The translations under genes were made by a program, and so were the position numbers. 50,220 bases of DNA from an uncultured Candidatus Saccharibacteria bacterium. GTDB lineage: Bacteria > Patescibacteriota > Minisyncoccia > Phycocordibacterales > GWA1-40-21. Location of the stretch: the NCBI GenBank assembly GCA_964562105.1, contig CAZLRP010000003.1:15718-65937 (forward strand). The letters are read 5' to 3'. Under the pieces are notes generated by a model. That model did no database searches. It worked only from the letters and a program-made list of their open reading frames with translations, and had not been told where the DNA came from. Below, piece by piece: positions 3,705 to 35,248 of the stretch (positions within the stretch are counted from its first letter, which is position 1; each line of letters opens with the position of its first letter).

Positions 3705-3761
3705 TAACTTTGTCATAGTTGCAATAAACACAATAAACAATGTCAAAGTTAGTGTGCGGAT
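3705..3761. repeat. ATCCGCACACTAACT inverted-repeat element, copy 1 (short)
   Basis: ATCCGAACACTAACTTTGTCAT...ATGTCAAAGTTAGTGTGCGGAT; homologs near 43776-43917 and 47772-47906. End coordinates approximate. Confidence 0.75.
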
Positions 3762-3776
3762 AAAATTATTAACCTC

Positions 3777-3812
3777 GGGCGAAAATATTTTTATTAAAAA
3801 ATATTTTCGCCC
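3777..3812. repeat. Perfect 16-bp hairpin just upstream of the TasA-like operon start
   Basis: GGGCGAAAATATTTTT-atta-AAAAATATTTTCGCCC. Confidence 0.7.
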
Positions 3813-3826
3813 CAATAAAATAAATT

Positions 3827-5083: not shown

Positions 5084-5132
5084 TAATCAAAGAAACAAAA
5101 TTAATTTTATGAAAAAAGGCATAAAAAAAGAT

Positions 5133-7497: not shown

Positions 7498-9727
7498 ATT
7501 AATAATAAAAAGAAATAAGAAAATTTTCAAGAAACTTTTGATGAGTTTCAGAAAAATTGAGCGAAAATCTAAAAAGTTTGCAATATTCTGTTTGAAAAAA
7601 AGCGGTATTATCCGAGATAAAAGAAAAAAACAATCTGTATGTGAAAAAATATTATTTAGATTTGCGACTATTATACTTATGGTTGCAGTGAGTATAGGAA
7701 TTTTAAATATTTCTCCAACAGATGCTTATTTTAATGACACGGAAAGTTCTACTGCCAATACTTATACAGTCGGAACGTTGGATTTTAGTGTAACTCCAGC
7801 TGGCGATTTTTCTCCTCAACCTACGCCAACACAAAATAGTTTACGGGATATTACGGTAGCGAAACTAGGCGATTTAGATTTTCAATATAAAGTGAAAGCA
7901 AGTAATGTTAGCGGTAGTTTTTGCCAGAATTTAAATTTAAAGGCGACTTTGAATGGCACTACTTTGTATGATGGTAATTTAACTAATTTTTATATTGCAA
8001 CGACGACTGACTTGGGAACTATTAATTTTACGGCCAGCTCAAACGCTCATAGTTTTAATCAAACTTGTAATTTTGATTTGGTTTTTATCGGCTGGCAGGT
8101 GAATTTAAATAATGAAAATTTAGGATTTAGCGATAAAAAAATAATCAGCAATAGTATCGTAGGAGGGCAAGATCAAGACGATGTGGTCTTGAATGAATTT
8201 TTGCCAAATCCTACGGGGGCTGATACGCAAGATGGTATTTTGGGTGAATGGGTTGAATTTTATAACAACAGCAACCACTCTATTGACATGACAGGTTGGT
8301 ATACGGAGGACGCTATAGGTGCAAGCCACAGAAAAATAATCAGCACGGCAACAACCTATAATGGCCAAACAACTATTGGCGCTAAAGGTAGCGGTTCTGA
8401 ATGGCTGGTATTGTTTATGAACGGCGAAATTTTAAATAATACAGGCGACACAATCAATCTTTATGATAATTATGGCGGGCTAGTTGATACTCACAGTTAT
8501 AACGGTTCTAATTACAATGTTAATGACACGCCGGGTGGAACTAATAATTTAGTTGCTTATCTGCCTTTCAATAATGATCTTTTGGACAAGAGCGGAAACA
8601 ACAATAATGGCACAAATAATGGTACAACCTTTACTACAGTTTCAAATGGGAAAGCTGAAGAGGCATTGAATTTGACAGGTACGCAATATGTAGAAATTCC
8701 AGATTCAGCCAGTTTGGATATTGCCAACCAAATCACGCTTGAGGCTTGGGTTTATCCAACAGCTTGGAGCTCTAATGAAAATAATATTTTGACTAAAGCA
8801 GGTGATGGTGACTATGGAGTTTGGAATTTGCACTATAAAACTGGCGGAGGTGGTTTTAGGTTTGAGTTGAATAATGGAGGAGTCTCTCATGCTTTATTTG
8901 AATCATCTCCTTCAACTGCTTTAGATACTTGGTATCATGTCGTGGGTGTGTATGATGGTAGCGAGATGAAACTTTATGTTAATGGAGTTTTGAAAGGTTC
9001 TTTGGCTACTAGCGGAAATATTGCTACCAACAACTCGCCGTTAAGAATTGGCAAGCAATTTTGGTGGAGTAATATCTATTCATATTGGTCAGGTAGAATT
9101 GACGAAGTCAAAATTTATAATCGTGCCTTAAGCGCGACAGAAGTTTTGGAACATTTTAATACTGTTAACGATGGAGCAACAAGTATTCCAGAAAATAAAT
9201 CTTTCGCTAGAATTCCAGATGGCGTAGGAGCATGGATTGATCCAATACCAACACCTGGCGGAACTAATAATTTCTCGGATATTTTGGAAACAATATCGGC
9301 AACAACAACTGAAGAATTTATAGCGACGTCAACTTCAGAAAATTCTGTCACCGGTGCTGACATTCCAGAAAATATCGCTATTAGCACAGAATCAGTAGAA
9401 TCAATTGCTACAACGACTGCTACAACAACTGCTACAACAACAGAAAATATTATTGAAGATTTATCGGCAACCTCAACACCGGAAATTGTGCCAGATATTG
9501 CTCCGGAAAATAATACGGATACGGCAAGCACAACTTCTCCTGTTGTTGACGCGGAAGCGGTTGTTGATATATCAGTACTAGTCGCACCAGAAGAAACAGT
9601 TGAAACAGAAGAAGTGGAAGAAGAAACTCAGCCTTTGCTAGAAGCTACGGAGAGCGAAGCAGAAGAAACCGAAGTATCAGAAACGGTAGAAGAAAATGTA
9701 GCAAATAATGTTGAAGAAATTATATAA
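7490..9727 (+). CDS. SipW-cognate secreted protein: TasA-like domain, lamin-tail domain, LamG/ConA-like domain and acidic Thr/Glu tail
   Basis: TDAYFNDTESSTANTYTVGTLDF; VVLNEFLPNP..EWVEFYN (LTD); ITLEAWVYP..WYHVVGVYDG..LYVNG..GRIDEVKIYNRAL (LamG). Confidence 0.8.
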   Translation: MFKLIIKRNKKIFKKLLMSFRKIERKSKKFAIFCLKKSGIIRDKRKKQSVCEKILFRFATIILMVAVSIGILNISPTDAYFNDTESSTANTYTVGTLDFSVTPAGDFSPQPTPTQNSLRDITVAKLGDLDFQYKVKASNVSGSFCQNLNLKATLNGTTLYDGNLTNFYIATTTDLGTINFTASSNAHSFNQTCNFDLVFIGWQVNLNNENLGFSDKKIISNSIVGGQDQDDVVLNEFLPNPTGADTQDGILGEWVEFYNNSNHSIDMTGWYTEDAIGASHRKIISTATTYNGQTTIGAKGSGSEWLVLFMNGEILNNTGDTINLYDNYGGLVDTHSYNGSNYNVNDTPGGTNNLVAYLPFNNDLLDKSGNNNNGTNNGTTFTTVSNGKAEEALNLTGTQYVEIPDSASLDIANQITLEAWVYPTAWSSNENNILTKAGDGDYGVWNLHYKTGGGGFRFELNNGGVSHALFESSPSTALDTWYHVVGVYDGSEMKLYVNGVLKGSLATSGNIATNNSPLRIGKQFWWSNIYSYWSGRIDEVKIYNRALSATEVLEHFNTVNDGATSIPENKSFARIPDGVGAWIDPIPTPGGTNNFSDILETISATTTEEFIATSTSENSVTGADIPENIAISTESVESIATTTATTTATTTENIIEDLSATSTPEIVPDIAPENNTDTASTTSPVVDAEAVVDISVLVAPEETVETEEVEEETQPLLEATESEAEETEVSETVEENVANNVEEII

Positions 9728-10985: not shown

Positions 10986-11035
10986 TTTTAGTTAACTAAA
11001 TTACATAATCAAAAACTCCTAAGTTCACCATGGCG

Positions 11036-11236
11036 TGAGGAAGCAAAAGTCTTTGCTTCTGTAATACTCATTGAGGTTTTCTGCAATTACGCTATAGCGT
11101 AATTGCAGAAAACCTCAATGAGTGGACAGTTCCTGTAAGGTGAGGAAGTGAAAGTCTTCACTTCCGCAAGACTCATTGAGATTTTTTATGAACACAGTGA
11201 AATAAAAAATCCAATGAGTGGACAGTTCCTGTAAGG
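11036..11236. repeat. Two tandem ~100-bp structured repeat units nested in a hairpin
   Basis: Units 11036-11140 and 11141-11236. Each runs TGAGGAAG-hairpin(AGTC loop)-ACTCATTG..CAATGAGT-GGACAGTTCCTGTAAGG. Confidence 0.8.
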
Positions 11237-11460
11237 AATTTGGGGTTTTTTGTATTTTGACAAAATTATCGCATATATGCTATAATACTAATGTCAGAAA
11301 AGAAAGAACATTAACAATCGAATACAAAAGAAAGACACCTCTCTCCATTTGCAACTCATTTTTTGGGTTTCAGGTTGGGAGGGGCGGTCTGGTAATTAGC
11401 CGGATGATTTTGCTTCGTCGAGCAAAATCAAAAAAGCCTTTCTCTTAATTTTTCAATAAC

Positions 11461-13169: not shown

Positions 13170-13210
13170 TTTCTTTTATTCAAAAAAAATTGTGATATAC
13201 TGTCTAACAT

Positions 13211-13891
13211 ATGATAGTTTTTGATAAGGTAACAAAAATATACCAAGACGGAACTGTGGCTTTAGATGAGGTTAGTTTGATCATTGAGCCAAAAGAGTTT
13301 ATTTCCATAGTTGGACATTCAGGAGCCGGTAAAACCACTCTTGTAAAAATGCTTTTGGTGGAAGAAGGACCAACTTCAGGAAAAGTATTTTATGAATCTT
13401 TGGATGTAAACAAGCTTGTAAAACACGAAATCCATCATTTTAGAAGAAAAATAGGCACGGTTTTTCAAGATTTTAAACTTTTATCAAATAAAACCGTATA
13501 TGAAAATATAGCATTTGCCATGGAGATGTCCGGAAGATGCGATGATGAAATTTGTTCGGATGTTCCCCATGTGCTTGATTTGGTAGATTTAACCCAAAAA
13601 GCTTACAATTTTCCTCACGAGCTTTCTGGAGGAGAAAAGCAAAGGGTTGCGATAGCGAGAGCCATTGTAAATCAGCCAGATGTTATCATTGCCGATGAAC
13701 CTACAGGAAATCTTGATCCTATAAATACTCGTGATATTATTCAAATATTGAAAAAAATAAATGATCTTGGGACAACGGTAATCCTTACCACCCACAACAA
13801 AGGCGTCATAGATTCCTTGAAAAAAAGAGTTATTACAATGGAAAATGGTAAGATTATAAGAGACGATGAAATGGGAAAATATGTTTTATAA
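13211..13891 (+). CDS. ftsE: Cell division ATP-binding protein FtsE
   Basis: GHSGAGKT, VFQDFKLL, LSGGEKQRVAIARA, ADEPTGNLDP; upstream of ftsX. Confidence 0.9.
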   Translation: MIVFDKVTKIYQDGTVALDEVSLIIEPKEFISIVGHSGAGKTTLVKMLLVEEGPTSGKVFYESLDVNKLVKHEIHHFRRKIGTVFQDFKLLSNKTVYENIAFAMEMSGRCDDEICSDVPHVLDLVDLTQKAYNFPHELSGGEKQRVAIARAIVNQPDVIIADEPTGNLDPINTRDIIQILKKINDLGTTVILTTHNKGVIDSLKKRVITMENGKIIRDDEMGKYVL

Positions 13892-15042: not shown

Positions 15043-15142
15043 AACTTGAAAAAGAGTGTATTTTAAAGTATTCTTTGTTTATTGCGGGATCGTCTAACTT
15101 GCCCGTCAAATTTTTGTTCATTGCAAAGCTGGTCTTTAGAGC

Positions 15143-15213
15143 TGGGAGATCGTCTAATGGTAGGACACGTCCCTCTGGAGGACGTTATCCTGGTTCGAGT
15201 CCAGGTCTCCCAG
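15143..15213 (+). tRNA. tRNA-Gln(CTG)
   Basis: Acceptor TGGGAGA/TCTCCCA; anticodon CGTCC-CTCTGGA-GGACG; T arm CCTGG-TTCGAGT-CCAGG. Confidence 0.95.
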
Positions 15214-15335
15214 CTTTGCAGAGCAGAACTAAATTGCGCCAATGTAGTGTTTACCCTTTGCCATGAGAACGCACCCAATATACTTTTCTCTAAGAAAGTA
15301 TATAATTGTAGTATACGAAAGTGAGATTAAGCATT

Positions 15336-15793: not shown

Positions 15794-16579
15794 ATGTTAA
15801 AAAGTACAAATCATTTAAAATCTATTCTCTCCTACATCCTCGGAGCCACTCTCGTAATTGGGGGAGTAGTCTTTGCTGGTACACTTACTCCTTCAGTAAG
15901 CATAGATACAGCAAACTTTGTAACTTTATCTGACATATACAACAAAATCATACTGAATACATACTCTACTTCTACTCACTCAATATCCACCACATCAGCT
16001 CCTGTAGCATCAATGTACACTCTTCTTGAAATATGGAATGGAATCCCCGCAATTGACTCCAGTAAAATGCTAGATACATACTCTCTAATGGGAGTTACAG
16101 GCGCAATAGCCGTAAAAACAAACGATAATGCAGTTACAATCACTTCCACTTCTACAAACAAACTTCTTCTTACTGTTCCAGCAGGTTATTATGGCGGTTC
16201 TGCTACTGTTTCTACAACTTCCACTTCTTTTGACCCCGCTAATATTGCAAATGGGGTGAATATTTTTGGAATCACAGGAACATTAGGAGTAGTATGGGAT
16301 ACTGCCGAGGTTGGTACTATGGATTGGGCTACAGCCGTCTCTACTTGCACAGGACGTGGATCCAGACTTCCAACTGAAGGAGAATTAATGAAGGGGTTAT
16401 CTGATCAATTTATACAGAGTCCAGCGATAGCTGATGGTTTTGTTCAAGAGGATTCTTATTGGTCAAGCAATGTGTTTTCATTTAATGACAGTTATGCTTG
16501 GCAAGCTTCAGCTGGCGAAAGTATAATGAGTGGTACTGGAGTAAAAACCTCTCTTGGATTAGTACGTTGTGTTCACTAG
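15794..16579 (+). CDS. Surface protein with a C-terminal DUF1566/CLec-like domain (paralog 1)
   Basis: Signal/TM, Thr/Ser-rich stalk, C-terminal RLPTEGEL..YWSS..AW..LVRCVH. Confidence 0.75.
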   Translation: MLKSTNHLKSILSYILGATLVIGGVVFAGTLTPSVSIDTANFVTLSDIYNKIILNTYSTSTHSISTTSAPVASMYTLLEIWNGIPAIDSSKMLDTYSLMGVTGAIAVKTNDNAVTITSTSTNKLLLTVPAGYYGGSATVSTTSTSFDPANIANGVNIFGITGTLGVVWDTAEVGTMDWATAVSTCTGRGSRLPTEGELMKGLSDQFIQSPAIADGFVQEDSYWSSNVFSFNDSYAWQASAGESIMSGTGVKTSLGLVRCVH

Positions 16580-16656
16580 GTTTTAATTTTTAGATGATTT
16601 TATTAATTAATAAATAAGATTAAATTCGTTTATAATTTAATATTAATAATGTTATT

Positions 16657-17370
16657 GTGTTAAAATTCTCAAATTTTTTTAAACATCTTCTTTCGTACAT
16701 TCTCGGAGCCACTCTCGTAATTGGGGGAGTAGTCTTTGCCGGTACACTTACTCCTTCAGTAAGCACAGATACGGCAAACTTTGTAACTTTATCTGATATA
16801 TACAACAAAATTATACTGAATACATACTCTACTTCCACTCACTCTATATCCACCACATCAGCTCCAACTGCTTCAATGCATACACTATATGAAATATACA
16901 ATATCATACCTACCTTATTACCTGCCACTATTCTCACCAATACCACCATTATGGGTGTAGCAGGAACTTACAACACATCAAATCTTATCCCAGGTAATGT
17001 AGCTACAGGAACCGCTTATGGAACAAGTTCTGTGGGGACTCTTGTTGAAGCACAAGCTACGGAGTGGGATGCAACTGATAATCCTGCCGGTAATGTTAAT
17101 TGGTTTGCGGGAGGTACGTATTGTGCCAGTCTTTCATCAGTCGGAGGAACAAAAGACGGAATGCCTTGGAGATTGCCATCGCAAACTGAATTGATAGCTA
17201 AATATAACGGAGATCATTCTGGTTTTGAGGAGTACGGTACGTATTGGTCTGGTACTACGGATACAGATCCGGAACACAGTGACTCCGCCTACGGTGTCCA
17301 TATGACATTTGGTCCCGCATGTTGCGCTAGCAAATTATATCTAACCGCGCTTATTCGCTGTGTTCGTTAA
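16657..17370 (+). CDS. Surface protein with a C-terminal DUF1566/CLec-like domain (paralog 2)
   Basis: N-terminal ~80 aa nearly identical to paralog 1; C-terminal WRLPSQTEL..YWSGT..AY..LIRCVR. Confidence 0.75.
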   Translation: MLKFSNFFKHLLSYILGATLVIGGVVFAGTLTPSVSTDTANFVTLSDIYNKIILNTYSTSTHSISTTSAPTASMHTLYEIYNIIPTLLPATILTNTTIMGVAGTYNTSNLIPGNVATGTAYGTSSVGTLVEAQATEWDATDNPAGNVNWFAGGTYCASLSSVGGTKDGMPWRLPSQTELIAKYNGDHSGFEEYGTYWSGTTDTDPEHSDSAYGVHMTFGPACCASKLYLTALIRCVR

Positions 17371-17404
17371 TTTACCTCTATTTTCACACAATGTAGTGTA
17401 GTTC

Positions 17405-17476
17405 TTGACAAACCACCTAAACAAATCTATAATCAAGATAGAAAGTCATTGCTGATTCTGATGAATCGGTGAGTTG
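17405..17476 (+). promoter_or_regulatory. Sigma70 promoter plus conserved structured 5' leader, copy 1
   Basis: TTGACA-N17-TATAAT, then TAGAAAGTCATTGCTGATTC-TGAT-GAATCGGTGAGTTG; homologs at 20214 and 22453. Confidence 0.85.
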
Positions 17477-17523
17477 AAAAATAAAAAATCTGATAAAAAG
17501 GACGTTCCTTAAAGGAGGACGAT

Positions 17524-18867
17524 ATGTACAGGGAATTAAAATCACCAATTGCCGTTCAATTAGAGATGACAACAAAATGTAATCACAAATGTATCCACTG
17601 TTACAATCATTGGAGGAAAGATTCCGTACGAGATAAGACCCTCAGTGAAGATGATGTAAAAAATATCATTGAAAATCTGAGAAAAAGTGAAGTTCCCAGC
17701 TTACTGATTACGGGTGGAGAACCGATGCTTTATCCTGATTTGATGCTCAAGGCACTTGAAATTGGGAAAAGTGCTGGGTTGGAGTATTCCTTAAATTCTA
17801 ACCTGACACTTGTAACTCCAGAAATTGCAAAAAAGTTAAAGAAACTAAAAATTGGTGTGTTAACGTCAATTTTATCTTTTGACAGAAATGTGCATGATAG
17901 TATAACAACGTTAGATGGTTCTTTTGATAGACTCATTGCGGGAGTTAAGCTCATGCAGAGGTATGGAGTTTCAGTTAGTGCGAATATGGTGGTCATGCAA
18001 AAAAACATAGACCAAATTTATGAGACAGGTAAGTTTGTTCATGGTTTGGGCTTGTCGGGGTTTAGAGCAACGAAAGTTCACCCGGCACAGGGATCATCAG
18101 ATTTCGAGAAAATAAAACTTCCACCAGAAAGAATTGTTGAAATTTTTGACAACCTTATCAAATTAAGAGAAGATTTCGGGCTCAAGGTTGATTCTCTAAC
18201 CACATACCCAACATGTCTTGTAAAAGACATGGATCGTTATGGTCAATTTATCCTAAGGCGAAGTTGTAGTGCTGGTAAAACTGGTTGTACAATAGGTGCT
18301 GATGGACAAGTTCGGCCATGTGGACACTCTGACGATAATTATGGCAATGCTACCGAAGAATCACTTCTTCAGATTTGGCCAAGATTGAAAAAGTGGAGAG
18401 ATGATTCTTTATTACCAAAAGAGTGTAAGGAATGTAAGTATGTTATCGAATGTAGTGGCGGTTGTCGCATGGATTGCAAATTCTATGGAAAAATCGATTC
18501 AATGGATCCATATGCGACGGGAAAAGATTTTAATTACATTCCTCAAAAACCAGAAAAAGTTGTACTTCTCCATTCTGAAACAGAGTTGATTATTGATCCG
18601 ACTCTTCGTTTTAGGCTAGAGAAATTCGGGTCGGTATTGATTGTTGAAAACAATGTCACATCAATAATTAGCCCAGATTCCGCAAAGTTGTTGAAGGAAC
18701 TAATGGGCACAATTTTTACACTGAATAGTATTTCCAATAAATATGGACTCGACGTGGAAATTGTGCGTAATTTTTTTACAAGCTTACGCAAGCAAAAAGT
18801 TATCTGTTTGTCGGATAAAATCTCTAAAGTAAAAGAAAGGAGGTTGTGTTATGGCAAAAACTCTTAA
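17524..18867 (+). CDS. Radical SAM/SPASM domain peptide maturase with a probable C-terminal RRE (PqqD/MftB-like) domain
   Basis: CNHKCIHC (CxxxCxxC); ITGGEP; SPASM CSAG..C..GADGQVRPC and CKEC-x5-C-x3-C; C-terminal LRFRLEKFGSVL followed by helices. SD AAGGAGG. Confidence 0.9.
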   Translation: MYRELKSPIAVQLEMTTKCNHKCIHCYNHWRKDSVRDKTLSEDDVKNIIENLRKSEVPSLLITGGEPMLYPDLMLKALEIGKSAGLEYSLNSNLTLVTPEIAKKLKKLKIGVLTSILSFDRNVHDSITTLDGSFDRLIAGVKLMQRYGVSVSANMVVMQKNIDQIYETGKFVHGLGLSGFRATKVHPAQGSSDFEKIKLPPERIVEIFDNLIKLREDFGLKVDSLTTYPTCLVKDMDRYGQFILRRSCSAGKTGCTIGADGQVRPCGHSDDNYGNATEESLLQIWPRLKKWRDDSLLPKECKECKYVIECSGGCRMDCKFYGKIDSMDPYATGKDFNYIPQKPEKVVLLHSETELIIDPTLRFRLEKFGSVLIVENNVTSIISPDSAKLLKELMGTIFTLNSISNKYGLDVEIVRNFFTSLRKQKVICLSDKISKVKERRLCYGKNS

Positions 18868-18988
18868 TTTAGGGTTTGTCCAAATGGCAACTGCGGGTAA
18901 TATGTTCGGGAATAGTTCCGAACACTTAAGCTGCGATTGCGTCAGTTGTAATTGCGACTGCTGGTGCGATTACGACAAAGGTAATTAA
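18851..18988 (+). CDS. Putative RiPP precursor peptide 1 (45 aa, 6 Cys); not in ORF track
   Basis: Manual translation MAKTLNLGFVQMATAGNMFGNSSEHLSCDCVSCNCDCWCDYDKGN. SD GAAAGGAGG, overlaps the rSAM stop, terminator follows. Confidence 0.85.
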   Translation: MAKTLNLGFVQMATAGNMFGNSSEHLSCDCVSCNCDCWCDYDKGN

Positions 18989-19008
18989 AGTCTTATAATA
19001 AAGACTTG

Positions 19009-19038
19009 CTGGCTAATAGAAATATTAGCCAGTTTTTT
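19009..19038 (+). terminator. Intrinsic terminator after precursor 1
   Basis: CTGGCTAATA-gaaa-TATTAGCCAG-TTTTTT. Confidence 0.8.
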
Positions 19039-19133
19039 ATTAGATTGACAAATCACTTCAATTAGTATTACAATTATTTTAGAAGGTTATTATCGATAGG
19101 GTATGAACAAAATTCTTAATAAGGAGGTAAGCC

Positions 19134-19253
19134 ATGAAAGAAACATTAGAGTTGGGATTTGTTGCATTGGTTGATGGTCAGGTAGATACGAATGCAAGTA
19201 ATGATCTTAATGTTTGCGACTGCTACTCTACAATCCCAGGCAATCCAAATTAG
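19134..19253 (+). CDS. Putative RiPP precursor peptide 2 (39 aa, CDC); not in ORF track
   Basis: Manual translation MKETLELGFVALVDGQVDTNASNDLNVCDCYSTIPGNPN. SD AAGGAGGT; own TTGACA..TACAAT promoter; shares TL-x-LGFV leader and CDC with peptide 1. Confidence 0.8.
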   Translation: MKETLELGFVALVDGQVDTNASNDLNVCDCYSTIPGNPN

Positions 19254-19273
19254 AGTCTTATAGCAAACACTCG

Positions 19274-19301
19274 CTGGTCAACGAAATGTTGACCAGTTTT
19301 T
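19274..19301 (+). terminator. Intrinsic terminator after precursor 2 (homologous to 19009-19038)
   Basis: CTGGTCAAC-gaaat-GTTGACCAG-TTTTT. Confidence 0.8.
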
Positions 19302-19332
19302 ATTTAAGTTAAATATAGCGTATAATAATGAA

Positions 19333-20178
19333 ATGAAAAAAATAATTTTAAAAATTAGCCAAGAGACAGAAACAAAGTTTTTTTCTAGATTTTTGCATAG
19401 CAAGTTATTTCCTCAGCATAAATACATGATTTTTTCTAGTTTTCCAGAATTAAAAGAAAAGATTGATTCGTCAAAGAAAAAAGAAAAAATAATCATTAGA
19501 GAATTTTTAACAAAAATTAGAGAAGATAATAAAGACAATATAGAAAAATCAATAATTTTTATTAAAAATGAAATAGAAAAAAAAGGAGAAAAAAGTTTAC
19601 AAATTTTAGCTAATTTAATGGATTATAAATGGAAGCTAAAAAGTGAAGATTATATTCTAATGCCAACCCTTTTGCCGTTCTGCCCATTTGAAGACAATAC
19701 TTTTCTATATTCAATATACAGGTCTTTAAAAGGTAAAGTAGAATATCCTGATGTACTGGCTGTTTCTATGCATGAAATATCCCATTTTATTTTTTTTGAT
19801 ATTTTGAAAGATAAAAAAATTGAATTAAATCAAGATCTCCTTTATTTTGTAAAAGAGCTAGTCGCACCAGTACTAGTGTACCAAGATGATTTTGATGAGC
19901 TTTTTAAAAAAGGAATTATTGGAAACTATAATGTTTTAGAAATTTATTTTGAACAAAATAATAAAATAGTAAAGGCTTTTGATTATTTTCTTGAAATGTT
20001 TATTAAAAATAGACAAACAAAAAAAGATTTTAGTAATTTTCTTAGTGAAATGATTTCCATTAGCAAAAAAATAGAACCAGAGATAAAGGGAAAGATAGCT
20101 TTTTATAATAAAAATGGAATGAACATAATGAAAGATCCTGAACTTTTAAAAAAATTCCAAGAACCTATCAAAATTTAA
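19333..20178 (+). CDS. Hypothetical protein with a HExxH (zincin-like) motif
   Basis: SMHEISHFIF; TATAAT 6 nt before the ATG (leaderless-type). Confidence 0.6.
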   Translation: MKKIILKISQETETKFFSRFLHSKLFPQHKYMIFSSFPELKEKIDSSKKKEKIIIREFLTKIREDNKDNIEKSIIFIKNEIEKKGEKSLQILANLMDYKWKLKSEDYILMPTLLPFCPFEDNTFLYSIYRSLKGKVEYPDVLAVSMHEISHFIFFDILKDKKIELNQDLLYFVKELVAPVLVYQDDFDELFKKGIIGNYNVLEIYFEQNNKIVKAFDYFLEMFIKNRQTKKDFSNFLSEMISISKKIEPEIKGKIAFYNKNGMNIMKDPELLKKFQEPIKI

Positions 20179-20213
20179 TAATAATCCTAAAAAGGGGAGT
20201 ATCTGTGTAGCCC

Positions 20214-20285
20214 TTGACAAACCACCTAAACAAATCTATAATTAAGGTAGAAAGTCATTGCTGATTCTGAAGAATCGGTGAGTTG
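20214..20285 (+). promoter_or_regulatory. Sigma70 promoter plus structured leader, copy 2
   Basis: First 29 nt (TTGACA..TATAAT) identical to copy 1; leader TAGAAAGTCATTGCTGATTCTGAAGAATCGGTGAGTTG. Confidence 0.85.
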
Positions 20286-20312
20286 TTAAAATAAAAAAAG
20301 AGGAGGTTTGTC

Positions 20313-20876
20313 ATGGAAACTAGGCGTATTTTTTTAAGACCGGCTGAAAAGTCGGACATTCCTCTTTTATATATTTGGAGGAATACCGAATCGTATCGGG
20401 AACTTTTTTCCGGAAGAAGAAATATTATCAGTATGGAAGAATTTGAGGTGGAATATAAGCGGGACGCCGAAAGACTCAAACATGTACAGTTTCTTGTTTG
20501 TTTGAAAACAAACAAGAACCCCATTGGTTTGATATATTCATACAACTATGTTCCAACTGATGGACATGTTTTTATGGGTATATTTGTAGACGAACACTTT
20601 CGTAAGATTGGTTATGGAGCAGAAGCGACGATTTTATTCGTTAAGTTTCTGTTTGACATGTATCCAATACATAAAGTGTTGGCAGAAATATACTCCTACA
20701 ATAAGCCGTCTTTATCTGGGTCAAAGAATCTCGGTTTTGTTGTAGAGGGTGAATTCAAAAATCACCGCTTCTATAAAGGGAGGTATTGGAATGTTCTGAG
20801 AATGGCCCTTTATAGAGAAAATTTAGCACGATTAGAAAAGATTCATAACAAAATCTCTTTAATAAACAGTTCATAA
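20313..20876 (+). CDS. GNAT N-acyltransferase, RimJ/RimL family
   Basis: IFLRP N-terminus; FRKIGYGAEA acyl-CoA motif; N..S..G..NLGF..EG; SD GAGGAGGT. Confidence 0.85.
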   Translation: METRRIFLRPAEKSDIPLLYIWRNTESYRELFSGRRNIISMEEFEVEYKRDAERLKHVQFLVCLKTNKNPIGLIYSYNYVPTDGHVFMGIFVDEHFRKIGYGAEATILFVKFLFDMYPIHKVLAEIYSYNKPSLSGSKNLGFVVEGEFKNHRFYKGRYWNVLRMALYRENLARLEKIHNKISLINSS

Positions 20877-20915
20877 TAATTATGAACTAAATCAAAAAGA
20901 AAGGAGGTAGTCCAA

Positions 20916-21077
20916 ATGACGAAATTCTTAACCGGTGGCGGTGGCGACGGAGATGAAGACGACGGTCAGAAAGTCGATGAAGATTTCGATGATACGGCCG
21001 CAAGTGAACAGGGAAATGACACACCAGAACCCTCTGAACCAGCTGAGCCTTCCGAACCGTCCGTTCCAGATCAGTAG
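20916..21077 (+). CDS. Putative 53-aa acidic Gly/Asp/Pro-rich peptide; not in ORF track
   Basis: Manual translation MTKFLTGGGGDGDEDDGQKVDEDFDDTAASEQGNDTPEPSEPAEPSEPSVPDQ. SD GAAAGGAGGT; terminator follows immediately. Confidence 0.75.
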   Translation: MTKFLTGGGGDGDEDDGQKVDEDFDDTAASEQGNDTPEPSEPAEPSEPSVPDQ

Positions 21078-21089
21078 TTCCATTTAGTA

Positions 21090-21135
21090 AAATGGGGAGA
21101 ATCTTACTTTAAAGTTCTCCCCATTTATTTTTTTT
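21090..21135 (+). terminator. Intrinsic terminator after the acidic peptide
   Basis: AAATGGGGAGAA..TTCTCCCCATTT followed by a T-run. Confidence 0.75.
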
Positions 21136-21152
21136 AATGTATAATTATTATC

Positions 21153-22436
21153 ATGAGTAAATCAAGAGAACTAGGAATAGAATTTTATAAAGAAAAATTA
21201 CCAAACAATTCTTCTATTTTTTTATATAAAAGAAAGGGTTTTCCGATAAACATACAGATTGTTTTTAATGCAGGTGCTCGTTTTGGTAAAAAACCGGGCA
21301 TATCGCATTTTTTGGAACATTTATTACTAGCTGGATCAAAAAAATATCCAACAAAAGATGCCCTCTGTGTTCCATTAGAAAATATTGGTGGATCAATAGG
21401 TGCGTCTACTGGCTCAGAATTTTTATACATCAATGTAAATATAGCGGACAAAGAAGATATAGACATTGCTATTGATGTGATCAATGAATCGGTTAATAAT
21501 TCGTTATTTGATAGTAAAACCATCGAAAATGAAAGAAAAGCCATTCTTTCTGAAATCGGTAATAGAAAATCAAACCCCTCATCAAATGTTTGGGATATTT
21601 ATAAAAAAGTATTTTTTCAAGAAACTATTCTTCAAAATTCAGGCTTGGGCACGTCGGAGATAGTTTCTAGTACCACAAAAGAAGAACTTGTTGATGAATA
21701 CTCAAGACTTATAAAAGAGGGACGCCCGACTATAATGGTAAGTGGGGATGTTGATATAGATTCTTTGAAGGATAAATTTAGTATTATTTTAAATGGGACA
21801 AAAGATATTTTTTCAGGTCTTATCGGAACAAGTTTACCTATAGTAAAAAACAAACGTATTGAGGTTGAAGAATATACAGCTGATCAAGTTCATATGATTT
21901 TAGGTTTTCGAACAGGCATACATTCTATTGTAGATAATATTCCAGCACATATATTATCTATGTTGCTGGCTAAAGGCAGAACTTCTATATTAATGTCTGA
22001 ATTGAGATACAAAAATGGTTTGATATATAATATTAGTGGTTCGTCTAATTATTTTGCTGATTATTCAATGTGGCTTATAAATACATCAACAGATAAGAAA
22101 AATGTTCAAAAAGTAATAGATCTCATTCTTTTGGAAATAAATAAAATTAAAAATAATGGTATTACTGAAGATCAATTGAATTTTGTTCGGTCAAAATCAA
22201 TTAAATCACTAAAATTTTCATTACAAACATCCGCATCTTTAGTTAATTCTAATATAATTGAAGTGATGATGAATCAAAATGATTCTTATACATTGGATGA
22301 TTTTGTTACTGATATGGAAAAAGTAACAGTAGAAGATATTTTAAAATGTGCTCAAAATATATTTAATACGGATAATTTTTTTATCGCACTTTGTGGCAAT
22401 ATAGAAGAAAAGGATATCAAAATAAATATATCTTAA
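21153..22436 (+). CDS. M16 family (pitrilysin-like) zinc peptidase
   Basis: Inverted zinc motif GISHFLEHLL (HxxEH), ERKAILSE, and C-terminal ELRYKNGLIYNI. Confidence 0.9.
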   Translation: MSKSRELGIEFYKEKLPNNSSIFLYKRKGFPINIQIVFNAGARFGKKPGISHFLEHLLLAGSKKYPTKDALCVPLENIGGSIGASTGSEFLYINVNIADKEDIDIAIDVINESVNNSLFDSKTIENERKAILSEIGNRKSNPSSNVWDIYKKVFFQETILQNSGLGTSEIVSSTTKEELVDEYSRLIKEGRPTIMVSGDVDIDSLKDKFSIILNGTKDIFSGLIGTSLPIVKNKRIEVEEYTADQVHMILGFRTGIHSIVDNIPAHILSMLLAKGRTSILMSELRYKNGLIYNISGSSNYFADYSMWLINTSTDKKNVQKVIDLILLEINKIKNNGITEDQLNFVRSKSIKSLKFSLQTSASLVNSNIIEVMMNQNDSYTLDDFVTDMEKVTVEDILKCAQNIFNTDNFFIALCGNIEEKDIKINIS

Positions 22437-22452
22437 GGTAAGTATCCATTTC

Positions 22453-22523
22453 TTGACAAATAATTAAATTGTTCTATAATCGTGGATAGAAAGTCATTGC
22501 CGATTCGAAGAATCGGTGAGTTG
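22453..22523 (+). promoter_or_regulatory. Sigma70 promoter plus structured leader, copy 3
   Basis: TTGACA-N16-TATAAT; TAGAAAGTCATTGCCGATTC-GAA-GAATCGGTGAGTTG. Confidence 0.85.
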
Positions 22524-22561
22524 TTAAAATTCAAAAAATCTTTGGAAAAAGGAGGTGTGAG

Positions 22562-23044
22562 ATGAACACTGTTTTGTTTGCTGAACGAGTGGCCAGTTAT
22601 GGCACTTTGACCATTATTACAGTCTTAGTTGATGAAATTGTTTGGCCGGCAGTAGTTTTATGGCAGGGCCCAGTCATTGGCGGATTTATTATGTTCTGCA
22701 TCTCGCTTTTAATTAATCTCATTTTGATCTGGTCATATGACAAGATTAAAAAAGATGTTTTTGCTTTTGAGACTCTTCGTGAGATGGCAGATCAAAAACA
22801 AAAGAGTTTTGGTAAGCGAATACTTGCATGGTTCATCAGAGCCGGTAAGGTGCCTGCATTCATTGCGATTTCATTTTATGACCCGTTTCTTTCCGTGATT
22901 TATATGCGGAAGGGAGTAGAAAAGTATAAAATGGAAAAGCGTGACTGGGGATATTTTGGATTAGCAATGATAATCGGCTGTGTTGGCTGGACGCTTTGTT
23001 GGCAGGGAGTTTTTATTACTGCTAAAGCGGTTTTTGGACTATAA
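22562..23044 (+). CDS. Hypothetical integral membrane protein (about 3-4 TM)
   Basis: 160 aa with hydrophobic segments; SD AAGGAGGTG; hairpin terminator at about 23045-23076. Confidence 0.75.
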   Translation: MNTVLFAERVASYGTLTIITVLVDEIVWPAVVLWQGPVIGGFIMFCISLLINLILIWSYDKIKKDVFAFETLREMADQKQKSFGKRILAWFIRAGKVPAFIAISFYDPFLSVIYMRKGVEKYKMEKRDWGYFGLAMIIGCVGWTLCWQGVFITAKAVFGL

Positions 23045-23208
23045 ACGGCGAGGATATTTATTTATCCCCGCCGTTTTTCTTTCTGACAAAATTTTACTTG
23101 TATACAACCTTTTTGACCCCTATGTCTTTTTTGATAAGGAGTTAAAAAAGTGTATTGATGCAAATTGTAATTGTCGCTTCGAAAGTAGTTTGTTTTATGT
23201 TTCGATTT

Positions 23209-23838: not shown

Positions 23839-25092
23839 CTATGACATTACTAAAACTTGTGCAGTATCATCTGAATCCTTTTTAGAAAAAACTGTATGAC
23901 CTCTTTTTGTTTCAATTATTAATTTTCCTTTATATTTAGGATAATTGTTTGTCACAATTTTTTCTACCAAGCCATAATTCTCAACTATATTTAAACCAGC
24001 TTTGGGGCATAAATTAATTAAAAGAGTACTCGTGATTGATATAGTAGACCATACATTATAGTTATTTTTGCATAAGTTGGCAACTAGTTCAACTATTTTT
24101 TCAGAATTAACGGCTGAGGTCGCATAGAGCCTTTCTCCATCAATTAAACAACATGAAAGAATATTTCCTTCATTATCTAATTCATAAGCTACCGAATTAA
24201 TTTTATCATTGAATAGTTTGGTCGGATCAAATCTTTTACCAAACTGTGAAGCGACAAAAGCAGATAATTTAGTTTTTACATCAGGAACTAGTTCTTCAAC
24301 TGAGCTTGAGAAAAATCCATCAGAAACTTTTAATTTTTGTTTTTTTATATTTAGATCATCAAAAATACCTTTTGTGTCGTAACCTTCAAACAGATCCAAT
24401 ATTTGTCCCGAGTTAATATTTCCAAACAGTGGTTTAAGTTTATGGCGTCTGTGCGGATTTTTTGCAAAAAAATCAATAACCATAGGTAATGATTCATTAA
24501 TTATATTCATCGTTTCTTCCGAAACTTTTAAATCAGGGATTCTGGATATTTGCTTAAGTGCACTAATAATTTTCATTGGATCATTCTTTGCCAGCTCAGC
24601 GTCCATGAATCTAAATTCCTTGTTCATAATTTCTAACTGAAAATCAGGGTTTAATATTTTTAATGAGTCTAAATCAAAAGCACAGCAACTTAAATTTGAA
24701 TCAGCAGTTGCAATAAGCTCAGAAACCGTTTTTTCTCCAATACTAGCAACCTGTATTTCTTTTCCATTCAACATATAATTAAAAACATTAGCATCTTTTT
24801 TAAAGGAGTATTTTCCTTCGACGAATTTTACATCTTCCTCCCAATCCATTTCAGTAAACCCTAAGCTTTCCAGATTTTTTTTAATATCTTCCACTGACAT
24901 TCTAGACATAAAATCGAAGTCAGCTGGATATTTATGAAGAATAATATCTCTAACTGCACCACCGATTAAAAAACTGTTATTTCCAAATATTTTTATAGAT
25001 TCATTAATTGGCAGTAATTCTATGATTTTGTTCTCGACTCTTGAAATTTCCCCCGTTTCTTTCGGGTCTAAATTTGAGGGTATTTTTTCCAT
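23839..25092 (-). CDS. Divergent class II tRNA nucleotidyltransferase/poly(A) polymerase-family protein with an unknown C-terminal domain
   Basis: IGGAVRD..YPADFDF (motif A); the later RRDFTIN and DPLRxxR motifs are degenerate. Confidence 0.7.
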   Translation of the reverse strand: MEKIPSNLDPKETGEISRVENKIIELLPINESIKIFGNNSFLIGGAVRDIILHKYPADFDFMSRMSVEDIKKNLESLGFTEMDWEEDVKFVEGKYSFKKDANVFNYMLNGKEIQVASIGEKTVSELIATADSNLSCCAFDLDSLKILNPDFQLEIMNKEFRFMDAELAKNDPMKIISALKQISRIPDLKVSEETMNIINESLPMVIDFFAKNPHRRHKLKPLFGNINSGQILDLFEGYDTKGIFDDLNIKKQKLKVSDGFFSSSVEELVPDVKTKLSAFVASQFGKRFDPTKLFNDKINSVAYELDNEGNILSCCLIDGERLYATSAVNSEKIVELVANLCKNNYNVWSTISITSTLLINLCPKAGLNIVENYGLVEKIVTNNYPKYKGKLIIETKRGHTVFSKKDSDDTAQVLVMS

Positions 25093-25156: not shown

Positions 25157-25927
25157 ATGAATATAGATGATATATATACGCCGATAGATGAGGCAAAAAA
25201 AGAAATACAGAGACGATGGAATAATCCTATTTTGAGAAAAAAAGCGGAAGATTTTTTTGAGGGTAATTTACCAGAAGTTTTCAAAAATGAACCTAGAGCA
25301 ATATTAGCTCGAGGAATTCTTACTCCTAATTTTGAAACAAGATATTTTCTTGATCTGATGGATCTTATTGAACTTAAGCCAGTATGCGGTGAATTTCATG
25401 ATGATAAATTTTGCACTATGAATAAAGATAAAATCCATCTTGGAAAGTTAGTTTTTCTTCGCAAATCTAATAAAACAAACAATGATGTAATAGATAAAAA
25501 AACTATTATTGATTTAGAAAAATACGAGAACAAACCTTTTAAGGAAATAAAAACTTTATATAACAAAAGTCTAGTTGATTTCCATCATCATTTGTATAAT
25601 AAAGAGTATAAAGAGATTATGAACTTTTTTGACATTTCTATTTTTAAAAAAAAAGGTGAAACGGCAAAAGAAGTTTATGAAAAAATTTTTACTCTTTGTA
25701 TTGCGAGCGGTGTTTTATTTGAAAATTTTATAGCCAAAGAGAGAGAACATGAAAAAAAATTTACTGAGGAAGTTGTTTTACCCGCATTCAAATCAGTTTG
25801 CGATAAATTTAATCTAAAACCTTTGATTATTCCGCTTTTACCTCTAAAAAACGAAGAAAGAGAGATATGGGATTGGTATCCTGGGCATTTAGAAAAAGAA
25901 GTTGATGGTTTTTTAACAAATAATTAA
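25157..25927 (+). CDS. Hypothetical protein, apparently co-transcribed with the sensor kinase
   Basis: 256-aa ORF ending 7 nt before the kinase start; no family recognised. Confidence 0.7.
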   Translation: MNIDDIYTPIDEAKKEIQRRWNNPILRKKAEDFFEGNLPEVFKNEPRAILARGILTPNFETRYFLDLMDLIELKPVCGEFHDDKFCTMNKDKIHLGKLVFLRKSNKTNNDVIDKKTIIDLEKYENKPFKEIKTLYNKSLVDFHHHLYNKEYKEIMNFFDISIFKKKGETAKEVYEKIFTLCIASGVLFENFIAKEREHEKKFTEEVVLPAFKSVCDKFNLKPLIIPLLPLKNEEREIWDWYPGHLEKEVDGFLTNN

Positions 25928-25934
25928 TAATAAA

Positions 25935-27572
25935 ATGGATCATAATTTAATTACGAATCTTGAAACTTGTTTGCCCTCACTTATGGATGTTCTAAATGGA
26001 AATCTCAATTTATTATACTATTCGCATTTACCAACAATAATTATTTCTTTATTTTTAGGTTTTTTTGTTTTATTCAAAAGCAGAGAAAAATTATTATCTA
26101 GAGTTTTCTTTTTTTTATCTCTAGTTTTTGCTTTATGGTCAATTCTAGATTTGTATACATGGTTAAGTTTTGATACCAGAATAATAATGTTTACATGGTC
26201 ACTTACTGGTTTAGTGGAAGTTCTTTTCTTTGTCCTAAGTTTCTATTTTTTGTATGTATTTTTTGAAAAGAAAGATGTTCTCTTTAGATATAAACTACTC
26301 GGAGTAATTATCTTGCTGCCTTTAATTATAATGATACCTTTAAAGCTTAATCTATTAGGATTTAATTCTGATGGGTGTTATGCCTTAGAAAATAATTACT
26401 CCCTATATTATAAATATTTTATTGAAATAATCCTATCCATTATTATTGTTATCTTTTCTTTAATAAAAATTCGACAACAAGTAGATAAAAATTTAAGAAA
26501 ACAATTAGTATTTTTGTTTTGGGGAATTATGTTGTTTCTTTTTTCTTTTTTCTCTGCTGTATTTTTAAGTGGTTATTTGGTAGATGCAGGTTGGGGAGTC
26601 AAAGGTTACAGTGTTGAGATTTATGGTTTGTTTGGAACTATTATTTTTATGGCCTTTCTTGCATATCTCATCGTTAAATTTAAAGCCTTCAATATCAAAC
26701 TCATCGGTGCGCAGGCGCTTGTTTGGTCACTTATAATTATTATTGGTTCTCAGTTTGCTTTTATACAAAATCCAACAAACAAAATTCTCACGACTATTAC
26801 ATTGATTATTTCTGGTGTAGTTGGTCTCATGATTGTTCGTGGGGTAAAAAAAGAAATTTTTCTTCGAGAAAAGCTTGAAGTGGCAAATGCGGGACAAGCA
26901 AACCTTATCCATCTTATGAATCATCAGATTAAAGGATATTTAACTATCAGTAAAAATGTTCTAGCGGAACTTCTCACGGATGATTATGGCAAAGTACCGG
27001 AAGAAGCAAAAGAAATAATTACAAAAGGTTTGGAAAGTTCCAACAGAGGAGTCAGATATGTCACGGATATATTGAAAGGAGCAAGCGCAGAAAGCGGAAC
27101 TCTGACTTACAATATGCAAAAAATTGATTTCAAGGAAATCGTTTTGACTACGATTGAAAGCAGAAAAGAAATAATAGAAAATAAAAAGCTGAAACTTGAA
27201 GTAGATATTGCAGATGGCGACTATAATATGACGGGTGATAGATCACAGCTTGGAGAGGCCGTCAGAAATCTGATAGAAAATTCTGTTTATTATACTATCG
27301 CAGGAGGGATAGCTATTCATTTGAAACACAAGGCCGGAAAAATACTTTTTTCAGTGAAAGATACAGGTGTTGGAATCAAACATGAAGATAGATCTAAAAT
27401 ATTCAAAGCCGGAGGTGTTGGTAGCGATTCCATAAAAATAAACGTTAATAGCTCAGGTTATGGTCTTGCTTTTGTAAAAGGTGTAGTAGAAAAACATAAT
27501 GGCAAAGCTTGGTTTGAATCCGCCGGTGCTGGCCACGGCTCAACTTTCTTCGTAGAACTGCCGGTGGAATAA
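25935..27572 (+). CDS. Sensor histidine kinase with a multi-TM (HisKA_7TM-like) N-terminus
   Basis: H-box MNHQIKGYL, N-box NLIENS, DTGVGI, GYGLAFVK, GHGSTFFVELP. Confidence 0.9.
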   Translation: MDHNLITNLETCLPSLMDVLNGNLNLLYYSHLPTIIISLFLGFFVLFKSREKLLSRVFFFLSLVFALWSILDLYTWLSFDTRIIMFTWSLTGLVEVLFFVLSFYFLYVFFEKKDVLFRYKLLGVIILLPLIIMIPLKLNLLGFNSDGCYALENNYSLYYKYFIEIILSIIIVIFSLIKIRQQVDKNLRKQLVFLFWGIMLFLFSFFSAVFLSGYLVDAGWGVKGYSVEIYGLFGTIIFMAFLAYLIVKFKAFNIKLIGAQALVWSLIIIIGSQFAFIQNPTNKILTTITLIISGVVGLMIVRGVKKEIFLREKLEVANAGQANLIHLMNHQIKGYLTISKNVLAELLTDDYGKVPEEAKEIITKGLESSNRGVRYVTDILKGASAESGTLTYNMQKIDFKEIVLTTIESRKEIIENKKLKLEVDIADGDYNMTGDRSQLGEAVRNLIENSVYYTIAGGIAIHLKHKAGKILFSVKDTGVGIKHEDRSKIFKAGGVGSDSIKINVNSSGYGLAFVKGVVEKHNGKAWFESAGAGHGSTFFVELPVE

Positions 27573-27577
27573 GATTT
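27538..27577 (+). repeat. Kinase 3'-end direct repeat, copy 1 (native)
   Basis: GCTCAACTTTCTTCGTAGAACTGCCGGTGGAATAAGATTT; 40-bp identical copy at 29418-29457, 34-bp copy at 28775-28808. Confidence 0.9.
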
Positions 27578-27709
27578 TTTTCAAAAATTTATAAAATCAT
27601 TGTTTTTTAAGATATTTGACTTTTATCTATTCGCCTGGTACACTCCGTCTCGGGTATCTTAAATGTTTTAAGATAAATCAAGTACTTTAATAGAAAGGAG
27701 GTAGCAAAT

Positions 27710-28721: not shown

Positions 28722-28774
28722 TAGTTAAACTGGCAAGAGAAACATTTATAAAATATATGTATAATAAAGGTTAC

Positions 28775-28808
28775 ACTTTCTTCGTAGAACTGCCGGTGGA
28801 ATAAGATT
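28775..28808 (+). repeat. Kinase 3'-end direct repeat, copy 2
   Basis: 34 bp identical to 27543-27576. Confidence 0.9.
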
Positions 28809-28814
28809 ATTTTT

Positions 28815-28889
28815 GAAACAAAAAGAGGGCACACTGTCTTTTCTAAGAAAGATTCCAATGATACTCCTCAGGTTTTGGTAATGTCATAA
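28815..28889 (+). pseudogene. Orphan 3' tail (24 codons plus stop) of a homolog of the 23839-25092 gene
   Basis: ETKRGHTVFSKKDSNDTPQVLVMS* vs ETKRGHTVFSKKDSDDTAQVLVMS* (22/24 aa identical). Confidence 0.85.
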
Positions 28890-28902
28890 TTAATATATAA
28901 AT

Positions 28903-29409: not shown

Positions 29410-29417
29410 AAACAACA

Positions 29418-29457
29418 GCTCAACTTTCTTCGTAGAACTGCCGGTGGAATAAGATTT
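29418..29457 (+). repeat. Kinase 3'-end direct repeat, copy 3
   Basis: 40 bp identical to 27538-27577. Confidence 0.9.
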
Positions 29458-29604
29458 GTTATTTTATTAAATTAAATATACATAATTACAAGAATTTGAC
29501 ATATTTATAATTTACTTGTATTATCAAATGTAGAAGTATAGGGAAGAAGATAAATTCTATCCTGTTGAAAAATAGCGCCAAAGCGCAAAAAAAGGAGGTT
29601 CATC

Positions 29605-35196: not shown

Positions 35197-35248
35197 ATTC
35201 GAAAAAACAAGTATCAAAACTCAAATATATTTGCTATAATCGATTTCT

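Follow-up and report, generated by a model that had tools for sequence, protein, structure and literature searches.

A promoter and hairpin-leader cassette used three times in the radical SAM gene cluster of a Candidatus Saccharibacteria bacterium

The window analysed here is a stretch of 50,220 nt from contig CAZLRP010000003.1 (assembly GCA_964562105.1, positions 15,718–65,937) of an uncultured Candidatus Saccharibacteria bacterium, and all coordinates below are those of the window. It contains a gene cluster of the RiPP-like kind (RiPP, ribosomally synthesized and post-translationally modified peptide) with a radical SAM (S-adenosylmethionine) gene, hereafter rSAM, and three transcription units of this cluster are headed by copies of one cassette, a promoter joined to a structured 5' leader. 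The whole cassettes lie on the + strand at 17405–17476, 20214–20285 and 22453–22523, and each consists of a sigma-70 promoter that matches the consensus at 12/12 positions, followed by TAGAAAGTCATTGCYGATTC(T)GAWGAATCGGTGAGTTG. A first-pass annotation of this DNA had placed three + strand copies ahead of the rSAM, GNAT and membrane-protein genes; the sequence and the Logan assemblies described below confirm this, and its term "mini-regulon" is apt for a common cassette that heads three transcription units in one biosynthetic cluster. The features of the locus are the following (ORF, open reading frame; P1 to P3, the cassette promoters).

17405..17433, + strand: promoter P1; TTGACA, 17-nt spacer, TATAAT; 12/12 consensus.
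17440..17476, + strand: leader copy 1, from the predicted +1 (AGAAAG...) to GAGTTG; hairpin arms 17449–17458 and 17463–17472, loop TGAT at 17459–17462.
17524..18867, + strand: radical SAM/SPASM peptide-maturase-like gene, 447 aa; heads transcription unit 1.
18851..18988, + strand: candidate precursor peptide gene pepA, 45 aa, six Cys; a terminator-like hairpin follows at 19008–19033.
19045..19074, + strand: pepB promoter; TTGACA, 18-nt spacer, TACAAT; hairpin absent.
19134..19253, + strand: candidate precursor peptide gene pepB, 39 aa; a terminator-like hairpin follows at 19273–19297.
19333..20178, + strand: gene of a 281-aa protein with a HEISH motif; no Pfam or NCBIfam family.
20214..20242, + strand: promoter P2; identical to P1, spacer included; begins 36 nt past the stop of the 281-aa gene.
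20249..20285, + strand: leader copy 2; hairpin arms 20258–20267 and 20272–20281, loop TGAA.
20313..20876, + strand: GNAT acetyltransferase gene, 187 aa; heads transcription unit 2.
20916..21077, + strand: acidic Gly-rich small ORF, 53 aa.
21153..22436, + strand: M16 (pitrilysin-type) peptidase gene, 427 aa, HFLEH motif.
22453..22480, + strand: promoter P3; TTGACA, 16-nt spacer unlike that of P1 and P2, TATAAT; begins 17 nt past the M16 stop.
22488..22523, + strand: leader copy 3; hairpin arms 22497–22506 and 22510–22519, 3-nt loop GAA; C-G in place of U.G.
22562..23044, + strand: membrane-protein gene, no family match, 160 aa; sole gene of transcription unit 3.
23046..23078, + strand: terminator-like hairpin that ends the cluster, CGGCGAGGAT...ATCCCCGCCG then TTTTT; read by eye, not listed by a simple terminator scan.

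The P1 unit comprises the rSAM/SPASM gene and pepA and runs to the terminator at 19008–19033. The pepB gene has its own promoter at 19045, and the terminator at 19273–19297 stands before the 281-aa HEISH gene. Both candidate precursors carry a leader of the form K-x-L-x-LGFV. The P2 unit holds the genes of the GNAT protein, the 53-aa acidic ORF and the M16 peptidase, and the P3 unit that of the 160-aa membrane protein. The terminator scan lists none directly ahead of P2 or P3, so that read-through transcripts would hold the hairpins internally. Since the genes downstream of the three copies are mutually unrelated, the cassette reflects the reuse of a promoter and its leader, and not gene duplication. 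The homologues of the rSAM protein bear Patescibacteria, Parcubacteria and Saccharimonadales names, and by its FtsE homologues the window belongs in Patescibacteria, in the vicinity of Paceibacteria and Taylorbacteria.

On the + strand there are exactly three occurrences of the 20-mer TAGAAAGTCATTGCYGATTC, for 0.02 expected, and TTGACA-N15-19-TATAAT is found four times in the 50 kb, for 0.08 expected, three of the four sites being the cassette promoters. Copies 1 and 2 are 90% identical across 93 nt, the 17-nt spacer included: they have in common the −35 box, the spacer, the −10 box, the 37-nt leader (with one difference, in the loop) and 9 nt upstream of −35. Copy 3 retains both hexamers and the leader, its discriminator measures 7 nt instead of the 6 nt of copies 1 and 2, and it is ~81% identical to copy 2 from −35 to +38. 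The Logan assemblies of two sequencing runs (SRR13007705, SRR13007709) match the window at 100%, copy-specific differences included, and their contigs end at the cassette repeat, as is expected of a true repeat. The spacer of the pepB promoter agrees with that of copies 1 and 2 at 10/17 positions, and its leader reads TAGAAGGTTATTATCGAT, with no 3' arm and no stable fold; judging from this resemblance, the pepB promoter is possibly a fourth, diverged and older member of the promoter family.

The start site of each leader was predicted from the distance to the −10 box, +1 being set 7–8 nt after it. The minimum-energy fold of each leader is then a continuous 10-bp stem (−9.5 to −10.9 kcal/mol, z from −2.4 to −3.2) made of the pairs U10-A33, U11.G32, G12.U31, C13-G30, Y14-G29, G15-C28, A16-U27, U17-A26, U18-A25 and C19-G24. 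The hairpin lies at ~+10 to +33, ahead of an A-rich tract and a strong Shine-Dalgarno sequence (SD). The outer three pairs (U-A, U.G and G.U) include two wobbles, which have no counterpart in double-stranded DNA, and the inverted repeat CYGATTC-N3/4-GAATCGG occupies ~+13 to +30, that is, the early transcribed region. The 7-bp core of the fold drawn in the first-pass annotation stands; its closure by TCA/TGA with a TTG bulge gives way to the continuous 10-bp stem and is an alternative outer extension. It had also pointed out a variable loop and a change from U.G to C-G, and the three-copy comparison confirms both: in copy 3, a T has become C at the U.G pair and one loop base is lost.

The terminator scan lists no terminator at the three hairpins, no U-tract follows the stem, and the tail reads TGAGTTGWWAAAAT. 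In folds of the full leaders, the SD is unpaired or is paired differently in each copy, and no consistent SD sequestering is seen in any of the three contexts. A leader peptide was also considered and rejected, as ATGAATCGGTGA is present in copy 1 only, and the K-turn, C/D-box and split-SD readings made by eye were set aside because they rest on single-copy bases or lack the defining G.A pairs.

The differences between the copies are unevenly spread. Copy 3 departs from the others at 11/24 spacer and discriminator positions versus 2/38 leader positions (Fisher p = 2e-4), and the non-uniformity reaches p = 3e-5 when the hexamers are included; the leader is thus conserved independently of the promoter spacer, as had been proposed. 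Pairing survives each of the three differences seen between the leaders, which are either loop changes or the replacement of U.G by C-G. About 22% of random changes would be structure-neutral, which gives a probability of ~0.01 for three of them as a post-hoc estimate. The conserved block begins at the predicted +1, the discriminator immediately upstream being variable, and 9/10 stem pairs are invariant. As compared at the sequence level, the pattern of copy 3 fits selection on the promoter hexamers and the structured leader; the alternative is a short gene-conversion tract that begins near +1. Uniform decay, as under neutral duplication, is clearly not what copy 3 displays; copies 1 and 2, which are 90% identical with the neutral spacer included, would fit either a young duplication or selection.

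The first bases of the leader have a wider distribution. AGAAR is found 4–9 nt after the −10 box at 10/33 promoter-like sites of the window, compared with 3.7% of all positions (p = 2e-7), and the enrichment persists when two of the three copies are removed (p = 1e-5). (T/C)AGAA(A/G) is probably a preferred transcription start context, and the 5' end of the leader would therefore be the normal start context of this genome. The "conserved leader" of the first-pass annotation thus holds for the hairpin part, the TAGAAAG part being a general promoter-proximal motif that is not specific to the cluster genes. Sites of the form (T/C)AGAA(A/G) after a −10 box are present at 11257, 19045, 29496, 46783 (−), 1794 (−), 1412 (−) and 1036 (−), and in the three copies.

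The leader at 29496 (gene 29605) has a like layout, its own hairpin being followed by an A-rich tract that resembles the one in copy 1 (z −3.3/−3.6 for the first 45 nt). The leader at 46783 (−) is a weaker case (z ~−1.8 when its first 45 nt are taken, +0.8 for its full length). The hairpin-leader layout is an observation on one or two leaders of the window and not a rule of the phylum. At 11257, a 12/12 consensus promoter is followed by a ~175-nt leader within the non-coding region 11000–11460, which contains long inverted repeats, CTCATTGAGGTTTTCTGCAATTACGC / GCGTAATTGCAGAAAACCTCAATGAG, and a repeated ...GGACAGTTCCTGTAAGG element, and has no Rfam match.

Further copies of the cassette were sought in several collections. 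At the gathering threshold, Rfam 15 finds in the whole window only four tRNAs and one c-di-GMP-II riboswitch, none at the cassettes, and in the region 17000–23000, with E values up to 10, it returns only noise and nothing at the three sites. The scans of sequence collections require exact matches at 20–26 positions, so that copies ~90% identical could escape them; within this limit, strict patterns have no match in the JGI metagenomes and IMG/VR. A pattern made of the flanks alone, with the stem left free, gave two matches in 185,579 GTDB species genomes (Christensenellaceae and Phycisphaeraceae), for ~3 expected by chance; both are hairpin-less and were discarded. A covariance model (R1) built from the three copies scores these at 68–72 bits, and in 72 loci (0.58 Mb of related DNA) nothing else exceeds 18 bits; the best non-self match, in L035 (18 bits, E 0.58), falls within an ORF and was put down to chance. 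A fuzzy regular expression run across the relatives yielded noise only, and a search of the window for complementarity to the 5' flank gave nothing besides the copies themselves. The loci of rSAM relatives include 57 from metagenomes and more obtained via protein look-ups; upstream DNA was read for 17 of them (rSAM ~50–76% identical) and is unrelated to the motif.

These results do not bear out the idea of a new cis-regulatory RNA motif: the searched collections contain no copy, the orthologous leaders are unrelated, and there is no two-sided covariation. The Rfam and the homologue and covariance searches, both suggested by the first-pass annotation, gave no family at the three sites and no further copy in the collections or in the 0.58 Mb of related loci. 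The cassette looks like a lineage-specific, reused regulatory element rather than a conserved new RNA class or a riboswitch.

Homologues of the 281-aa protein are encoded after the rSAM gene in the related loci L002, L003, L004/L005 and L008/L009, and L032 has a more distant one. In L002 and L004/L005, there is also a pepA homologue after the rSAM gene. In L004, whose rSAM protein is 68% identical, the rSAM promoter and the promoter of the acidic ORF and M16 peptidase genes are homologous to each other and to the rSAM promoter of L002, the sequence being TTTGAC-N17-TGCTACTAT..TAGAT. A 7-bp hairpin comes after each of these promoters: ATTTTAG/CTAAAAT for L004 rSAM, GAATGAG/CTCATTC for L004 acidic ORF/M16 and TTTTAGA/TCTAAAA for L002 rSAM. 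Between the two L004 leaders, 4/7 hairpin pairs are changed on both sides. This comparison of sequences suggests that shared promoters and a hairpin conserved in structure only may be older habits of the cluster family. L002 and L004 have TAGAT/TAGGT where the window promoters have (T/C)AGAA(A/G). The L004 GNAT leader was also read as the window leader minus its hairpin, a similarity that is not significant (p ~0.05).

Small acidic Gly-rich ORFs (GGGGDGDEDDG...) are found at 20916–21077 in the window and at 4052–4165 (+) and 3747–3860 (−) in L004. The ORF at 4052–4165 is similar to the 53-aa ORF of the window and sits before the L004 M16 peptidase gene. The acidic ORF family adjoins the M16 peptidase/GNAT/membrane-protein module, and its products may be precursors of a second type or partner peptides. 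Another family, of 252–256 aa and with no Pfam match, is encoded at 25157–25927 in the window and flanks the rSAM gene in L004. The first ~30 codons of this family are present in five copies in L004, as two full genes and three fragments, ahead of unrelated genes (7022–7136, 9117–9231, 13192–13306, 15123–15237 and 16497–16611).

In genomes whose FtsE is 88% identical, the region downstream of prfB-ftsE-ftsX contains neither the radical SAM module nor the motif. After prfB-ftsE-ftsX, L071 carries defence and recombinase genes and L073 other genes; at its truncated end, L073 has a histidine kinase gene, a small ORF and an M16 peptidase gene. The cluster region, which follows tRNA-Gln (15143–15214), is therefore variable, since the downstream DNA differs in these genomes; its GC content is not unusual.

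The explanation that we favour, tentatively and with slightly less than even confidence, is that a promoter-plus-5'-untranslated-region (5'UTR) cassette is reused three times to co-express three operons, the hairpin acting at the RNA level. Each copy would supply a consensus sigma-70 promoter, a T/AGAAAG start context, a 10-bp stem-loop, an A-rich tract and a strong SD to one of three adjacent units, rSAM-pepA (with pepB and the 281-aa gene possibly beyond it), GNAT-acidic ORF-M16 and the membrane-protein gene. The outputs of the units would be coupled because their promoters are equivalent and they share the same 5' RNA structure. The hairpin would most likely be a shared structural tag in the RNA; we infer this tag from the sequence, as we do the start site and a role in stability or processing. 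It could act as a barrier or processing determinant for RNases, in read-through transcripts too, or as the binding site of one trans-acting factor, and it would not be a ligand sensor.

Several observations weigh against this explanation. With the predicted start site, nine unpaired nucleotides (AGAAAGUCA, with G at position 2) precede the stem. Two-sided covariation is absent among the three copies, the one variable stem pair varying on one side only, and selection is inseparable from recent gene conversion because no homologue was found elsewhere. The L004 comparison is a hand-registered alignment with one divergent sequence, and several orthologous rSAM leaders have no hairpin. Finally, across 29 predicted leaders of the window and related loci, 5' structure does not in general exceed that of upstream controls.

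In Bacillus subtilis, ermC and aprE are examples of 5' stability determinants. In E. coli, stem-loops of the 5'UTR determine the stability of the ompA and papA mRNAs (PMC3997798). The cassette is like them in having a stable hairpin near the transcript 5' end, then an A-rich region and a strong SD. Unlike them, it would have ~9 unpaired nucleotides before the stem, whereas the classical stems start a few nucleotides from the 5' end (PMC3997798), and its flanks are conserved as strictly as its stem. A few unpaired 5' nucleotides suffice for RppH and RNase E (PMC3997798). The hairpin is therefore probably not a classical 5'-terminal protector; it would more plausibly serve as a barrier, in processing or as the site that one factor binds.

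The main competitor, which we regard as somewhat unlikely, is a DNA operator: CYGATTC-N3/4-GAATCGG, centred at ~+22, would be bound by a dimeric repressor encoded elsewhere, and the promoters would be silent until induction. Palindromic repressor operators just downstream of +1 are known from lac O1. Like them, the cassette has a 7-bp inverted repeat, its halves separated by a short spacer, among the first transcribed bases of strong promoters that head co-functioning operons; unlike them, its spacer varies, its repeat is imperfect in two copies, and the conserved block is asymmetric beyond the repeat. Left unrepressed, three 12/12 promoters would drive one cluster very strongly, the half-site centres are 10–11 bp apart (about one helical turn), and fast turnover among relatives is normal for operators. 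GATTC-N-GAATC has four matches in the window, for 0.6 expected, three of which are the copies; the fourth GATTC...GAATC site, at 45679, belongs to another repeat family beside a tRNA and was rejected.

On the other hand, the half-site spacer of copy 3 measures 3 nt, against 4 nt in copies 1 and 2, and the latter two are asymmetric at the Y position, yet the RNA pair is maintained. The conserved bases beyond the 7-bp palindrome are not palindromic but are paired in RNA via G.U. In addition, the two homologous L004 promoters have unlike stems, which one repressor could not read. Pfam was run on 20 of the ~50 ORFs of the window, namely those of the cluster and its surroundings between 15.3 and 32.3 kb and three ORFs at the left end, and detects in them no DNA-binding regulator apart from the sigma factor at 96–959, the window covering only 50 kb of the genome. 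The RNA model, for its part, covers nearly all the conserved bases, TAGAAAG being generic and the remainder lying in a helix with RNA-only wobble pairs. It explains how far the conserved block extends and why it begins at the predicted +1, as well as the wobbles, the U.G to C-G change and the differing loop lengths. Between an RNA hairpin and a DNA operator, the evidence leans toward RNA.

It is also conceivable, but unlikely in our view, that the hairpin hitch-hikes, that is, that a promoter/5'UTR segment was recently duplicated or spread by short-tract gene conversion and that its hairpin has no function beyond that of any leader. Copies 1 and 2 are indeed like young duplicates, their 90% identity over 93 nt including the neutral spacer and the 9 nt upstream of −35, and there are many other repeated intergenic and gene-fragment segments in the window and in L004. 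The motif is absent from all the relatives examined, including the syntenic regions of the genomes with 88% identical FtsE, and the pepB promoter resembles an older copy that has lost the hairpin. This explanation is countered by the strongly non-uniform decay of copy 3 (p = 2e-4 to 3e-5) and by the structure-neutrality of every leader difference, and it would need chance for a conversion tract to start at the predicted +1.

Reuse as such has a precedent. Matus-Garcia, Nijveen and van Passel (2012) described promoter reuse by "putative mobile promoters", which are segments at least 80% identical over at least 50 nt ahead of non-paralogous genes of one genome, and which can bring post-transcriptional elements along with the promoter (PMC3575422). 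Their screen ran from −150 to −50 relative to the start codon (PMC3575422) and would cover the present copies only in part. The cassette is similar in its identities (90% over 93 nt for copies 1 and 2, ~81% between copies 3 and 2) and in its non-paralogous downstream genes (rSAM/SPASM, GNAT, membrane protein). It differs in that all copies lie within 5 kb of one biosynthetic cluster and extend over the whole 5'UTR to the SD. By inspection, there is no insertion sequence, terminal inverted repeat or target-site duplication, and the other genomes searched contain no copies. Promoter reuse is thus the closest documented kind for the cassette, with no sign of mobility.

It is doubtful that the 38-nt leader, the hairpin together with its strictly conserved flanks, is recognised by a dedicated RNA-binding factor acting in trans, or by the peptide product of the cluster, and that copying of the leader has created a private post-transcriptional regulon. 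A small riboswitch or attenuator, as the first-pass annotation had entertained, is very improbable, whether it were to sense SAM, acyl-CoA, a metal or the product peptide: although the leader is common to three genes, has an A-rich tail after its hairpin and superficially recalls very small aptamers (in particular preQ1-I of Rfam, a short hairpin with an A-rich tail in the 5'UTR), it has no Rfam match even with E up to 10, its sole structure is one 24-nt hairpin with no U-tract, terminator, alternative SD pairing or SD-sequestering fold that could serve as an expression platform, the loop is variable and its least conserved part, and the motif is absent from the orthologous clusters for which upstream DNA was read and from the 0.58 Mb of related loci, so that it is not conserved beyond a single organism.

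The rest of the window contains other regulatory and repeated elements. The c-di-GMP-II riboswitch, at 3277–3361 (+), scores 59.5 bits against a gathering threshold of 53.5 and lies upstream of the genes of two secreted proteins with camelysin/TasA-like signal peptides (3827–4888 and 5109–6923). On the − strand of the region 1–2200, near-identical promoters at 982–1036, 1740–1794 and 2097–2151 serve the sigma-factor gene and two of three small membrane-protein genes arranged in tandem. The same region has three terminators (40–73, 1065–1098 and 1815–1848) that are nearly identical, two of them fully so. The sigma-70-family factor at 96–959 (−) has 287 aa. Pfam also assigns, among the same 20 ORFs, an orphan 7TM histidine kinase (25935–27572) and a HicA toxin (2658–2891), next to which the ORF at 2349–2651, with no Pfam match, is presumed to encode HicB. 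The 7TM histidine kinase gene ends in a stretch of ~46 nt (27535–27580; ...TFFVELPVE stop) that is repeated intergenically downstream, at 28767–28812 and 29415–29460, and a fragment like the 3' end of the 417-aa nucleotidyltransferase-like gene (23839–25092) is seen again near 28800–28890. Palindromes that resemble REP (repetitive extragenic palindromic) elements, TGTCATTCCCGCG...CGCGGGAATG, occur at 3429–3498, 34837–34873 and 35172–35197, and two of them flank a small GIY-YIG-like gene (34872–35156, −).

To our knowledge, hardly any work has been devoted to gene regulation in Patescibacteria (the candidate phyla radiation, CPR), and none of their RiPP-like clusters has been characterised. The element does not look like a new RNA class and is confined to one organism in the data searched; the locus is a tidy natural example of three operons of one pathway wired via the copying of a promoter and its 5'UTR. 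If the leader did recruit a dedicated factor, this factor would coordinate the translation or decay of three RiPP-like operons in a reduced CPR genome with few transcription factors. The consensus promoter, the AGAAR start context and the hairpin/A-rich/SD layout could guide the annotation of transcription units and the heterologous expression of clusters from the CPR.

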